A stretch of 64,000 nucleotides of DNA from Escherichia coli (GCF_041248615.1 NZ_CP158426.1), one strand, 5' to 3'; shown: positions 36,968 through 42,574, numbered from the stretch's first letter. Numbers and translations: made by a program. Notes: generated from the sequence alone by a model not told the origin.

Positions 36968-39900
36968 TTACCACTGAATACCGGCACCGAGCGCGGCGGA
37001 GTATTCACCCTGGCTATTGGTACTACCTTGTAATTTGTAGACCCAACGACCATTGGCGCTCACCATCGACACACCTAAAGCAACAGCCGATTCACCATTG
37101 TAAGTACCGCCACCAATAGAGGCCATGCTGGCACCTGGAGTGTAAGCCTGCGGCAGACCGGTCATTGCCATTGCAGAAGCGATACCACCGCTCAACTTGC
37201 TTTCGGTTTTGGACAGTTTGTTATCCATCTCAACCATCCGCTGATCGGTGTATTGCTTCGTTTCCTGCACGCTTTGCTTCAACTGCGCATAGTTCACTGC
37301 GTCGTTGTTGTTGACGCCAGCGGAGACGTTGCTGATGCGAGTCGTACCGCCATTACCACCACCGAGAGTGATGTTGCTGTAGTCTATAGAACCATCAGCT
37401 TTGGTGTCGTAACGAACGCCGCCTGCCTCAGAAGACTTCAGCTGCGAAACGTTAACCGCATCGGTGGCATTAACACCTGCAGCAACGTTGGTGATACGAC
37501 GCTGGTTGGTAGAAGAACCCACAGAGATGGTGTTTTCTTCGTTGGCCACGGAACCGGTACCCAGCGCGACGCTGTTGTCAGCGGCAGCAATGGAACCAGA
37601 ACCAATTGCAACACTGTCTTTACCCTGCGCGTTGGCATCTACGCCATCGGTGTTGGTCTTGAAGTATTTGGTGCTACCGGTGGTTACGATATCGCCAATG
37701 CCGTTTTCGATATTGGTAACGCGAGTATCCAGATTCGTCACCTGATTGTTCAGGTTAGTAATGCTCTGGGTATTCTGGGAAACCTGCGCGTCCGTTACTT
37801 TCAACTGACCCACGTTAACCGCATCGGTATCAGCCGAACCAGCCGCGACGTTGGTGATCTGACGTTGACCGTCTTCACTGCCGACAGAGAACTCACCCAC
37901 AGAGTTCTGTGGTGCGTCCATGTTGTAGGCGGTGTAGCCAGTTTGAGCACCACGAGTCGTCTGTGAGCCATTACCCATAGCAATGCTGTTTGCATGGTTT
38001 GCACGCGCGTTGCTACCGATAGCAATGCCATTAAGTGCATTCGCGTCCACGTAGGCACCATAACCGATACCAATACCCGCATTACCATTAACGATAGTTT
38101 TCGCGCCCATTGCTAGCGAGTCTTCACCTACTGCCAGTGAATCTTCTTCCGTTGAGTTGGCGTGGAAGTATTTGGTCGGCGTGGTAGCGACTGCACCAAT
38201 GGCATTTTGCAACTGGCGAACCGTAACGGCGTCATGGGCTTCGGAACCATCGGCTACGTTGATGATTTGACGATATTTACCGTCATCACCAATAGACAAC
38301 GCACCAAGTAGTTCGCCATCCGTGGTGTCATAACCAATCACAACACCTTCTTCCGACACGCTGGTGTCACGAGAACCTTTAACTATTACACGGCTGGAAA
38401 CGGAACTGCTACCCAGGGCAATACCGGTATCAACGGTGCTGCTGCTACCTTGACCAATGGCTACGCTGCTTTCGCCTGAGGCGACAGCGTTATAACCCAC
38501 AGCCGTAGCGCCAATACCTGAAGCGCTGGCATCGTTGAACGCTAAGCCGTTGTCGTTGGTACGTACATAGTTAATGCCCGCACCGTTATCTTCGATGTAG
38601 GTTTCGCTGGTGTTACCGGCAAGCTGATTGATGATTTCGCTGTTCTGCTGGATCAGCATATTGGTGTTAAACAGCTGAGAACCGTTGATGGCGTCAGTGC
38701 TGCCTTCGCCAATGTTACCATCAGCAACGTTTGTGATGATGCTGGCCTTGCCATCATGGCTGGCGTTGTAGGCACCTGCGCCGTCATTGGCCGTTGCATC
38801 CCACAGCAGAGCGTTATCGTCGAGCGCATCTAGGGCGTCACCGACGTTGTTGTACTCGGCATTTGCAATGGTGTAACTCGGCGCAGTAATAGAACCATCA
38901 GCGTTGACTTCTGCGTCACCACCCAGCGCATCAGCGATGTACTTGTTGGTGGTATACAGTTGTGAGCCGTTAATAGCATCGCTGCTGGTGGAGGAAATTG
39001 CACCGTCTGCGACGTTAGTAATGACGCTGGCCGTTTTATCTACTCCGCGACCGGCGCTAAATGCACCATTACCATCATTGGCTGTGGCATCCCACAGCAG
39101 GGCGTCATCCAGCGTGGTATCGATCGCTTCCAGCGCGTCACCGACGTTGCTGTAACTGCCACCAGCGATGGCATAAGTCGGTGCGGTGATTGTGCCGTCA
39201 GCATTGACTTCTGCGTTACCACCCAGAGTATCGGCAATGTACTTGCTGGTGTCATAGAGCTGTGAGCCGTTAATAGCGTCGCTGCTGGTAGAGGAAATTG
39301 CACCGTCTGCAACATTAGTAATGATGCTGGCCGTGTTATCTGTCCCGCGACCGGCGCTAAACGCACCGTCACCGCCCTTGGCGGTCGCATCCCAGAGTAG
39401 GGCATCACCCAGTGATGTGCTAAATGACGTGTTAATGGCAGCCAGAGCATCACCGACGTTATTGTAGTCAGTACCACCAATAGTGTAGGTTGGCCCGGTT
39501 AATACACCCGCATCGCTGATATCAGCACCACCGCCAAGGTATGACGTAAATGAATCAGCTAAGCCATAAAGTTGTGAGCCATTAATGGCGTCAGTGCTGT
39601 CAGAGGATACAGTGCCTGCCAGTAAGTTGGTGATTTTGCTGGTGGCATCGGTGCCGTGCGCGGCGCTGAACGCGGTGCCATTCCACAGCAGGGCATCGTC
39701 TTTAAGGTCGCCAACGGAATCCGTCAGGGTATTGATACTGTTAGTGTTGGTGGTGATATTGGCAGTATTGGTCGCTACGTTATCGTTGGTGGTTTTCAGC
39801 TGAGAACCGTTAACCGCATCCTTACTGGTATCAGAAATAGCGCCGTCTTTAACGTTGGTGATGGTACTGGTAGTATCTGTACCATGTGCCGCACTATATG

Positions 39901-41287
39901 CCTTTTTAAGGGAGTCCCATTGTAACGTATTATTGTCCAGGCCCGTTAAGGCGTCGCCAACAGTGCCGAAAATACCACTTTTCAGCCTGTAATTTGGGGA
40001 AGTAACGACGCCTTGCGCATTGACGGTAGCCCCCCCACCAAGATTGTCCGCTACTGACTTACTGATAGCATAAAGCTGTGATCCATTGATGGCATCAGTA
40101 CTGGTAGTGCTGATATCACCTGCTGCCATATTGACAATTTGTCGCTGAGCTGTTGTGTTACCCACAGAAACAGTATCCGCGTCAGTCGCTACAGAACCAG
40201 CACCCAGAGCAACTGAATTTTTCCCCTGAGCACTGGCTTGAGCACCAATTGCAGTGCCATTTTCTAAACCGGCATAACTGCCTTGTCCAAGAGCAATAGC
40301 ATTTACACCACCTGTAATACTACCATTACCCAGCGCGATAGCATTTGCGCCGTCAGCTTTATTCCCTTGACCGATGGCAATTGCGCCAGCCGCTACTGCC
40401 TGACTTTGATTGCCCAGAGCAATCGTGTTGTCGACATCTGCAATACTGCCGGAGCCCAACGCGATACTATTAAGTCCATTTGCCTCCGCGTTAGTACCAA
40501 CTGCCGTCGCATTTTCAGCAGCTTTGCTCTCTGCACCCATAGCAATCGCGTTTGCGGCGTTGGCGGCGGATAGTCTACCGAATGCGAGGCTGTCTACGCC
40601 AGCTGCAGCACTGTTGCGGCCTACTGCAATCGCGTTAGCTGCAGATGCGGCGCTACTTGCACCCAGCGCCATTGCATATTCTTTCGACGCATTAGCCGTG
40701 GCTCCGAGGGCGATACTCATAATTCCTAAGGCCTTGCTTTCACGTCCAAATGCGATGGCGTCATCAGCACCAGTCTCTGCGTGATCCCCTTGTGCAATAG
40801 AAAATTCACCTACTGAGTTCGCATAACGACCAAGTGCGATTGAAAATCCACCCGTTGACGTTGCCGATGCACCTATAGCGAGGCTTCGCTCACCTGCTGA
40901 GGTAGTGTTAATCCCTAACGCCACTGATGCTTCGCCAAGCGAATGGGTCTTAGCACCGAGGGCTGTTGACCACCTTCCGTCAGCAGTTGAGTGATAACCT
41001 ACTGCGGTGCTGGAGCCACCCCCGGTGTCTGTAAAACTATTTGCTTTTGCATCTTCACCGATAGCAACCCAGCCTGTTCCTGTTCCCTGGCCATAATTGA
41101 CGCCCTGACCGTTGTCCCTTCCTGCCTGAGCCTGTACCCCAAACGACGACAACATTCCCCCAGCAACCAGGGCAGAAATTAACAGCTTACTGCGCCCGGA
41201 TTTCTTGCCACGGCTTTTTGCCGTTTCACTGGCAACGGTGTAACTGCCTGTTGCCGGATTCCAGATAACTTTAAAAATTTTGTTCAT
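36968..41287 (-). CDS. Trimeric autotransporter adhesin (UpaG/EhaG/SadA family)
   Basis: 1439 aa; extended signal peptide [21 protein letters not shown]...; repetitive head and neck motifs; C-terminal YadA-type anchor ending ...[10 protein letters not shown]. Confidence 0.85.
38680..40096. repeat. Tandem ~300-bp intragenic repeats (about 5 units, two nearly identical) in the adhesin stalk
   Basis: Protein units DALLWDATA...AINGSQLY...NVGDALxAID recur at aa ~398-870; DNA units at 38881-39120 and 39181-39420 align with few mismatches. Confidence 0.7.
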
Positions 41288-41330
41288 TATTGATGCTCTC
41301 TATTCCTTGATATAAGCGCAGAAGCTGCAT

Positions 41331-42014
41331 TTATTTTTTGTTTTTTCGCTGCCGAGTTTCAGCAGGTTGAACAGTGTCGAACTGGAGATTGGCCATATTG
41401 ATGGACAACTTCAGATACTTCAGGTTATTAGGCGAAACGCCTTTTAATGTCAGATTAATGTCTTGCCATTGACCAGGCATTAATTGCAGAGTGGAATTCA
41501 TGGTGGTGTTGAAAAGTAATTGTTGCCACTTTGCCAGAGCTTTGGCATCGGTGGGTCTTTCATTGCCCCATGTCGCATGAAAGCCAATATTTGATACGGG
41601 AACGCTTAAAAGGTTAACCAGCGAAATACGAATAACACTGCCATTTTCAACCGCATCAATAGCCAGCACCCGGCCTGCCAAACCGACCGATCCGTTATTT
41701 AAAATGAAATATTGTGTTTGTGCTGGGTTAAATTCTGTAAAGACAAATTCGTCCTGCTTGTCTTTAACCGCTTTCACCACGCCAGCGAGCGTCTTGGTAC
41801 TATTTATGACAGTAGTTTGTTGTTTTTCAAAATGTTCTATCTTTCGCTTATCGAGTTCCTGCTGTTTCTCAAGCGCCTCAATTTTGCTTTTTTGCAACTC
41901 TTGCTGTGTAACGAGGTCGTCGACCTTACTCGCTTTTTCAATATAGTCACACCCTGCCAATAAGCAGAGAGGCACTATTATTAACACGCTTAACAGTGTT
42001 TTCTTTAGGTTCAT
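41331..42014 (-). CDS. SadB-like lipoprotein (putative adhesin export helper)
   Basis: 227 aa; lipobox LLAGC; coiled-coil segment QQELQKSKIEALEKQQELDKRKIEHFEKQQ; 44 bp upstream of and co-oriented with the adhesin. Confidence 0.65.
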   Translation of the reverse strand: MNLKKTLLSVLIIVPLCLLAGCDYIEKASKVDDLVTQQELQKSKIEALEKQQELDKRKIEHFEKQQTTVINSTKTLAGVVKAVKDKQDEFVFTEFNPAQTQYFILNNGSVGLAGRVLAIDAVENGSVIRISLVNLLSVPVSNIGFHATWGNERPTDAKALAKWQQLLFNTTMNSTLQLMPGQWQDINLTLKGVSPNNLKYLKLSINMANLQFDTVQPAETRQRKNKK

Positions 42015-42574
42015 AGGATGAATTCCTTTTCATAATCCCGATACGTTGATAATTACAGTACAATCATTTTTTTTATGAATGATTAGAGTGGGGGATATCC
42101 GCCAAATAAATTTGTTAGAGAATTTTTGTATTAATGGGTTGTGCGAATATGTTTTTAAGTGTCAAACAATTTTAGTTTGTAGCCAATAAATAAATTGATC
42201 GCGCGGATTTTAATGATCGGTGTCAATCAATGTCAAATGTTTCACCGGATAAAGGCCCGGGGCAGGGAAAGATAAATATTCAGTTGAGTGATGTTTTATT
42301 GCGAATTTTGCGATGCTGATAGAAAAATTTAAATAATTAATTATGTTTCAAGCATTGATATGCGGCAATTCATTGTTAATATTGATACATCATTCTTTAA
42401 TTTGTACCTGATTTTCAGAATTTAGCCTGCTCCGGGCGCTCAGAAGTGTAGGTGGAGTTAAATATATAATGTTAAGAACGTTATAAATATTCGATCTCTA
42501 CAACAGGCTCCTGCATGTGCCAGCAGGAGCGAGTAAATCGTGAGTGGCTGTAATTACAGCGACGAGAAAGGAAC

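Follow-up and report, generated by a model that had tools for sequence, protein, structure and literature searches.

A probable sadBA-type operon, encoding a SadB-like lipoprotein and a trimeric autotransporter adhesin, between yibL and lldP of Escherichia coli

Between yibL and lldP of Escherichia coli, in a stretch of 64,000 nucleotides (nts) analyzed here as one window (GCF_041248615.1, NZ_CP158426.1), lie two co-oriented genes on the minus strand, each opening with an ATG: the first encodes a lipoprotein of 227 amino acids (aa), the second a trimeric autotransporter adhesin of 1439 aa (Table 1). With yibL upstream (42575-42937) and lldP downstream, they form part of the gene order mtlADR-yibT-yibL-sadB-adhesin-lldPRD. 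The adhesin frame has no internal stop, and chance could not plausibly produce an open frame of 4.3 kb that has family-specific domains at both ends. RefSeq labels the two products 'DUF3251 domain-containing protein' and 'YadA-like family protein' (WP_192459646.1 for the adhesin). The original prediction, made from the sequence alone, had placed both open reading frames (ORFs) at these positions and likened them to the SadB-SadA pair of Salmonella. Both frames are present as predicted, adjacent and co-oriented; the predicted interval of 44 bp, however, counts as 43 bp from the lipoprotein stop codon to the adhesin ATG. The Salmonella sadB-sadA spacer, quoted as 44 bp by Grin et al. (2014; PMC3953254), likewise comes to 43 bp when recounted. 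Taken together with the comparisons below, the segment is very probably the E. coli sadBA-type operon, a positional orthologue of the Salmonella sadB-sadA, upaG, and ehaG loci.

The lipoprotein is the smaller and more readily assigned of the two. Its N-terminus reads MNLKKTLLSVLIIVPLCLLAG immediately followed by Cys, a lipobox LAGC that ends in Cys22 and is succeeded by Asp23 (41946-41960); the resulting GCDY motif, with its Cys-Asp pair, is kept in 8/8 loci compared. An aspartate at position +2 is the classical inner-membrane retention signal of Lol sorting, and should hold this lipoprotein in the inner membrane. A phmmer search against all PDB chains aligned residues 23-227, the full mature length, with residues 3-207 of Salmonella SadB (4c47, deposited as 'inner membrane lipoprotein') without a single gap (E=3e-70), bearing out the predicted lipoprotein with a SadB-like coiled-coil segment. 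Over the whole alignment, 53% of positions are identical to 4c47; the C-terminal domain (58%) is better conserved than the coiled-coil part (44%). On every feature that can be checked from its sequence, the protein is thus a SadB orthologue.

SadB shares its C-domain β-sandwich fold with YajI, a paralogue in E. coli (nuclear magnetic resonance structure 2JWY; PMC3953254). Since RefSeq names the window protein merely by its DUF3251 domain and calls such proteins 'SadB/YajI family lipoprotein' in other genomes, one might ask whether it is a YajI-type paralogue, functionally unlinked to the adhesin and adjacent to it by accident. This is extremely improbable. At E<=0.01 the PDB search with the lipoprotein returned 4c47 as its sole entry, YajI not among the hits, and the adjacency to the adhesin, the orientation and the 43-bp spacer are kept in every locus examined. 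The YajI gene itself is situated elsewhere on the chromosome, between yajC-secDF and nrdR, in no operon with an adhesin and with no linked autotransporter, and its product is ~14% identical to SadB (PMC3953254). In Salmonella, SadB is a homotrimeric, inner-membrane-anchored lipoprotein whose co-expression with SadA, in E. coli and Salmonella alike, gave more surface fibre and higher protease resistance (PMC3953254). SadB homologues are confined to Enterobacterales (bioRxiv 10.64898/2026.01.22.700529). The literature yielded no experiment on the E. coli lipoprotein.

The adhesin carries the hallmarks of a trimeric autotransporter from end to end. Pfam recognizes ESPR at residues 1-48 (E=7e-16) and YadA_anchor at residues 1379-1439 (E=2e-19), and in the passenger between them ~20 YadA_head and 11 distinct YadA_stalk matches, so that the extended signal peptide, the YadA-type anchor and the domain annotation anticipated for this protein were all recovered. 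The signal peptide, to residue ~54, is followed by a YadA-like head to ~380 and by a series of neck, coiled-coil, and DALL-type modules to ~880; smaller heads, necks, and coiled coils then lead to the anchor. Nine neck and five DALL-type motifs were counted, with AINGSQL and DALLWD recurring every ~78-100 residues, and the chain ends in GAGIQW, with a terminal Trp. The C-terminus matches the Hia and YadA anchor structures in the PDB. There is also close agreement with two solved fragments of SadA, 2yo0 (E=1.7e-135) and 2yo3 (E=7e-91), which match residues 1022-1365 with most aligned positions identical. With its anchor, passenger, and ESPR all in place, the protein is, as judged from its sequence, a trimeric autotransporter (type Vc). 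The named NCBIfam families Ata, EmaA, Vomp, BimA, and YadA were tried for the adhesin and discarded, their scores lying far below the cut-offs.

Table 1. Features of the sadB-adhesin locus and its surroundings, in window coordinates.
Feature	Coordinates	Strand	Basis
Intrinsic-terminator-like hairpin, 13 pairs and T-rich tail, 3' of the adhesin gene, upstream of lldP	36915..36944	-	Terminator scan
Whole 5627-bp segment missing in K-12, with both genes, the spacer between them, and the region upstream of the sadB orthologue	36947..42573	-	K-12 locus alignment
Trimeric autotransporter adhesin gene, 1439 aa, positional orthologue of SadA/UpaG/EhaG	36968..41287	-	ORF, Pfam domains, SadA fragment matches, identity to UpaG/EhaG
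YadA anchor, residues 1379-1439	36971-37153	-	YadA_anchor E=2e-19
Conserved membrane-proximal stalk and anchor, residues 1020-1439	36971..38230	-	88-100% identity across Escherichia, Salmonella, Pseudocitrobacter loci
Neck / coiled-coil / DALL-type modules, residues ~383-880	38648..40141	-	YadA_stalk matches, recurring motifs
300-bp tandem pair inside the module series	38820-39412	-	Tandem and direct repeat scans
27-nt stretch with the junction of the missing four modules	39626..39652	-	27 nt identical at both deletion ends
N-terminal YadA-like head, ~residues 60-380, most variable part	40148..41110	-	Many YadA_head matches between residues 90 and 377
Extended signal peptide (ESPR and Sec), residues 1-54, with predicted AQA cleavage motif at 52-54	41126..41287	-	Pfam ESPR; 81-100% identity across eight loci
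sadB-adhesin spacer, 43 bp, AAGGAA/GAGAG purine-rich ribosome-binding region	41288..41330	-	Length and sequence conserved in eight loci
SadB orthologue, 227-aa predicted inner-membrane lipoprotein	41331..42014	-	PDB 4c47 match; GCDY motif in 8/8 loci
Lipoprotein parts: coiled-coil region, ~residues 30-88; β-sandwich domain, residues 89-227	within 41331..42014	-	Homology to 4c47
AT-rich yibL-sadB region, 560 bp, 32-42% G+C	42015..42574	-	Composition, alignment
σ70 promoter-like site: -35 TTGACA, 18-nt spacer, -10 TAAAAT	42207..42236	-	11/12 consensus matches; best in region
Hairpin just after yibL, possible yibL terminator	about 42515-42540	-

Conservation along the adhesin is strikingly uneven. 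Across the eight loci, identity runs at 81-100% in the signal peptide and at 88-100% over the C-terminal 420 residues, the latter 88-96% when the comparison is made with the UpaG, EhaG, Salmonella, E. fergusonii, and Pseudocitrobacter proteins. The head, by comparison, is 31-73% identical to other alleles, with KE55, at 100%, the sole exception. Given so divergent a head, the ligands of the window adhesin may differ from those of the other alleles. UpaG (1778 aa), which Valle et al. are said to have described in 2008 as an adhesin of uropathogenic E. coli, is a positional orthologue: 93% identical in the signal peptide, 96% over the C-terminal 420 residues, and accompanied by an adjoining lipoprotein that is 88.5% identical. 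It differs in being 67% identical overall and ~50% in the head, and in its size, since the window adhesin is 339 residues shorter and has 9 neck motifs versus 14. EhaG (1588 aa, O157:H7), reportedly an adhesin of enterohaemorrhagic and other diarrhoeagenic E. coli according to Totsika et al. in 2012, is likewise a positional orthologue, 65% identical overall and 95.5% over the C-terminal 420 residues, and differs in the head (55%) and in its lipoprotein, which is 64-66% identical to that of the window. These matches at the same site, together with the SadA fragments, sustain the similarity to SadA, UpaG, and EhaG that had been predicted. An identification as UpaG or EhaG in the strict sense was nevertheless rejected, since the protein is identical to them at 67% and 65% of positions (50-55% within the head) and goes by the RefSeq name 'YadA-like family protein'. 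Judged by these identities, the window adhesin is instead a third allele class.

The EhaG locus of O157:H7 departs from that of the window in another respect, in that its lipoprotein gene carries a stop at codon 3. In E. coli O157:H7 Xuzhou21, the sadB orthologue opens ATG AAC TAG, Leu3 having changed from TTG to a stop (locus L004, 7324-7326), and RefSeq rescues the O157:H7 gene with an ATT start (222 aa). The EhaG-type strains W and NDM1 have an intact sadB of 227 aa. A 61-nt probe over the O157 sadB start was found exactly in 308/5,426 complete genomes, those listed being O157:H7, and with a mismatch in 1478 others. Because of this early stop, EhaG of O157:H7 may be without its helper lipoprotein.

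The Salmonella sadB-sadA locus (STM3690-STM3691; PMC3953254) offers a close precedent for the pair as a whole, with the mtl-lld site, the order, the orientation, and the 43-bp spacer all as in the window. SadB is 53% identical over the full mature length and has the same Cys22-Asp23, while its coiled-coil part is just 44% identical to that of the window lipoprotein. SadA closely matches the membrane-proximal ~350 residues of the window adhesin through fragments 2yo0 and 2yo3, while the two Salmonella alleles compared (2044 and 1935 aa) have heads 31-39% identical to the window's and contain more modules. PMC7247748 treats UpaG, EhaG, and SadA as positional orthologues and credits them with autoaggregation and biofilm formation as well as with binding to epithelial cells and matrix proteins. 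A more distant parallel is TpgA-AtaA of Acinetobacter, which includes the one other helper of a trimeric autotransporter so far described; here a small periplasm-facing protein, encoded beside a trimeric autotransporter, promotes its surface display. TpgA is unrelated to SadB and instead combines BamE-like with OmpA-like peptidoglycan-binding domains; it is also widespread in Gamma- and Betaproteobacteria, as opposed to the Enterobacterales-restricted SadB (bioRxiv 10.64898/2026.01.22.700529).

Several observations weigh against the assignment to a sadBA-type operon. The distal passenger is 31-55% identical to the UpaG, EhaG, Salmonella, and E. fergusonii alleles (73% for Pseudocitrobacter), and RefSeq, though naming upaG and ehaG in other genomes, does not name the window adhesin UpaG or EhaG. 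For the lipoprotein, the Pfam and NCBIfam searches gave no family match (DUF3251 of Pfam included), and its assignment to SadB therefore rests on the PDB match and the genomic context. The helper mechanism of SadB was itself a proposal in the original paper (PMC3953254), and expression of the two genes in the window strain is a prediction from the sequence.

The position of the operon is shared far beyond E. coli. The order mtlADR-yibT-yibL-sadB-adhesin-lldPRD recurs in Salmonella enterica, E. fergusonii, and Pseudocitrobacter, with adhesins of 2044 and 1935 aa, 1790 aa, and 1611 aa, respectively, and the UpaG and EhaG loci occupy the same site. In K-12, by contrast, lldP and yibL are separated by just 371 bp and both genes are missing, as the original prediction had assumed; the missing segment (Table 1) approximates the range it gave. 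K-12 DNA aligns through window position 36946 and resumes at 42574, with 95 bp containing repetitive extragenic palindrome (REP)-like sequence in between. Since these 95 bp mostly equal the sequence directly 3' of upaG in a UpaG-type strain, K-12 appears to have undergone a clean deletion that removed the promoter region along with sadB and the adhesin gene. The terminator-like hairpin that follows the adhesin gene in the window is kept in K-12, where it stands after yibL and the REP-like sequence. Both the conserved operon position and a 5-kb deletion in K-12 were reported by Grin et al. (2014; PMC3953254). As an observation apart, in the EhaG- and UpaG-type loci the adhesin stop is separated from the shared terminator hairpin by an additional ~70-115 bp that include a REP-like palindrome (L004, 1750-1830; L003, 1760-1825). 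This extra segment is kept in K-12 and is present neither in the window (36946/36947) nor in KE55; in O157 a direct repeat, GCCCTTAG, flanks it on both sides.

Among 5426 complete E. coli genomes, a sadB-like gene was found in 4149 (76%), of all kinds and not just pathogens, and an adhesin gene match in 4158, while the K-12-type junction was contiguous in 1263 (23%); the sadB-positive and junction-bearing genomes together cover nearly all of the collection. The original prediction had called the segment an accessory island. In the strong form of that view, the 5.6 kb would have reached some pathogenic E. coli by horizontal transfer, as an accessory (pathogenicity) islet lodged between lldP and yibL. 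Its absence from K-12, the high variability of the passenger among strains, and the low G+C content of sadB and its upstream region (32-43% vs ~52% in neighboring genes) could all be taken that way. Yet the G+C content of the adhesin gene is ordinary, no tRNA gene was found within window positions 30000-50000, and neither the ORF list nor the annotation of the locus shows an insertion sequence (IS) or an integrase. Moreover, the same genes sit at the same site in three other taxa, non-pathogens such as strain W are among their many E. coli hosts, and almost all genomes that do not have the genes show the single K-12-type junction, which retains upaG downstream sequence, as expected for a deletion; a deletion in K-12 is also the published view (PMC3953254). 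An islet is therefore highly unlikely. Instead, cross-genus synteny, distribution, the common junction, and the missing tRNA, IS, and integrase signatures indicate a locus that is ancestral and widespread, of which K-12 represents a loss. The predicted likeness to the UpaG/EhaG adhesins of pathogenic E. coli thus stands for orthology and site. The locus is not confined to pathogens, a strict UpaG or EhaG identity is not borne out, and 'island' and 'accessory', in the sense of acquisition, do not apply.

The upstream region suggests how the operon may be expressed. In an alignment of the yibL-sadB intergenic region from six loci of four species, 70 of the 611 columns are invariant, and among them are TTTGACA and a CATTA..AT -10 block. 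Because these hexamers persist in an otherwise poorly conserved region, the σ70 promoter-like site may be read as the operon promoter, with a predicted transcription start near 42200 and a leader of ~185 nt. The sadB-adhesin spacer is 43-44 bp long and near-identical in sequence in eight loci of four species, and the terminator scan found no terminator-like site within it, which is consistent with co-transcription and with a conserved translation-initiation region. Co-transcription of sadB and the adhesin gene from the conserved σ70 promoter is accordingly the most likely arrangement. A separate feature of this region is that 77-90% of positions in the spacer and at the very start of the adhesin gene (~45 nt, 41243-41287) are invariant across four species, synonymous positions included, compared with ~63-67% for the coding DNA beside them. 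No convincing conserved hairpin was seen in this stretch, and its conservation probably reflects the translation-initiation region together with coding constraints on the ESPR.

Other candidate elements around the genes came to little. ORFs of >=20 aa between yibL and sadB are short and overlapping, none of them credible, and the predicted 5' leader (42000-42205) folds no more stably than its shuffles (z=0.27). Rfam over 36600-43300 gave no family above its gathering score. The nearest approach, to the Salmonella small RNA family STnc380, lies between the adhesin gene and lldP (36844-36953, plus strand) and reached 28.9 bits against a gathering score of 60 (E=0.014). As the Salmonella, E. fergusonii, and Pseudocitrobacter loci gave no STnc380 match, this one is probably due to chance.

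Intact genes need not be active ones. The upstream DNA is AT-rich, which fits the H-NS repression reported for UpaG (PMC5012682, citing Totsika et al. 2012), and Grin et al. (PMC3953254) did not know under which conditions sadBA is natively expressed. Signs of decay also occur elsewhere, namely the ISEc35 insertion in three genomes, the O157:H7 stop at sadB codon 3, and the deletion in 23% of genomes. One could thus picture the two genes as cryptic, silenced for the most part (e.g., by H-NS), contributing little, and heading for a K-12-like loss. We regard this as possible, if on balance unlikely: both frames are intact, and the conservation across genera of the promoter, the spacer, the signal peptide, and the C-terminal 420 residues argues for continuing selection. 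Being a matter of regulation, crypticity would in any case not conflict with the assignment as a sadBA-type operon.

In such an operon, the two products would be expected to act in concert. Both genes would be transcribed together from the σ70 promoter ~185 nt upstream of sadB. SadB would be exported, lipidated at Cys22, and kept in the inner membrane by its Asp at +2; by homology with 4c47, it would form a trimer whose N-terminal coiled coil bears three β-sandwich domains in the periplasm. The adhesin would cross the inner membrane via the Sec pathway, using its extended signal peptide, and three chains, assisted by the β-barrel assembly machinery (BAM), would make a 12-stranded YadA-type barrel in the outer membrane. 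The passenger would be secreted as a trimeric fibre, built from head, necks, coiled coils, and repeated modules. By analogy with Salmonella, SadB may keep the three chains in register during export, raising the amount and integrity of the surface fibre. The fibre, by analogy with UpaG, EhaG, and SadA, may attach the bacteria to matrix proteins and to cells, and may also bring about autoaggregation and biofilm formation.

The length of this fibre varies within a single allele class. The window adhesin gene equals nts 1-1662 plus 2599-5256 of the KE55 gene with 0 mismatches; this relation was resolved by DNA comparison in two registers, blastp of such repetitive adhesins having given misleading, off-register alignments. 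The window gene lacks exactly 936 bp of the KE55 allele (1751 aa, WP_151329122.1), which amount to four tandem 234-bp (78-residue) modules. In KE55 these belong to a 234-bp x 4.2 tandem array with units 97% identical. The window sadB is 99.6% identical to that of KE55. Relative to the window, alleles of the same class have three extra modules in EBJ003 (1673 aa), four in KE55, and six in EFF60 (1906 aa). A further observation concerns the allele closest to the window's (99.4% identical), found in E. coli 23AR0303 and two other genomes, where an IS5-like ISEc35 splits the adhesin gene into two pseudogene fragments (L010, 4345-5392).

So exact an absence invites a technical explanation. Four 97%-identical units bounded by 27 identical nts make a loop that short-read assemblers can bypass, and the 1439-aa length could then be an artefact in which a 1751-aa type allele is truly present and its near-identical 234-bp array was skipped in assembly. 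Among the best 40 of 5,426 complete E. coli genomes, a single-piece 4320-bp match occurs in the window's own record alone, and most other contigs with the exact 1439-aa protein measure 50-200 kb, typical of short-read assemblies. On the other hand, a simple collapse normally leaves one array unit and the window has none, and the complete genomes with near-identical alleles, carrying 3, 4, or 6 modules, show that copy number truly varies. Since the exact protein is found on at least 24 contigs, seven of them >1 Mb, the short form is probably real, and an assembly artefact is rather unlikely.

If the short form is real, the window allele would be the zero-copy member of a series (0, 3, 4, 6). 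It is tempting to regard the gain and loss of this exact 78-residue neck/coiled-coil/DALL module as fast recombinational tuning of fibre length, rather than neutral instability, with module count adjusting either the projection of the head beyond O-antigen or capsule, or antigenicity. As an account of why module number varies, this is doubtful. Published work already covers the operon and where it lies, its deletion in K-12, the structure of SadB, and what the adhesins do, and the finding is in that sense correct but ordinary. Its small additions to a well-known vaccine-candidate locus are the 76% retention, the one deletion junction shared by nearly all losses, and the variation in 78-residue module count. 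For annotation, the 'DUF3251 domain-containing protein' at this site may be read as the SadB orthologue and the 'YadA-like family protein' as an adhesin of the SadA/UpaG/EhaG group.

Two other regions of the window bear mention. An rhs locus between yibH and yibF (51039-59203) is annotated as three pseudogene pieces, broken by the IS21-family ISEc12 (istA/istB) and the IS3-family IS1397; after the rhs pieces come an Imm57-family immunity gene and a hypothetical gene (49681-50981). In the lipopolysaccharide core (waa) cluster at 9592-18454, an O-antigen ligase gene accompanies three glycosyltransferase genes, two of family 8 and one of family 25; several proteins of the cluster have strain-group-specific accessions, indicating a non-K-12 core type.

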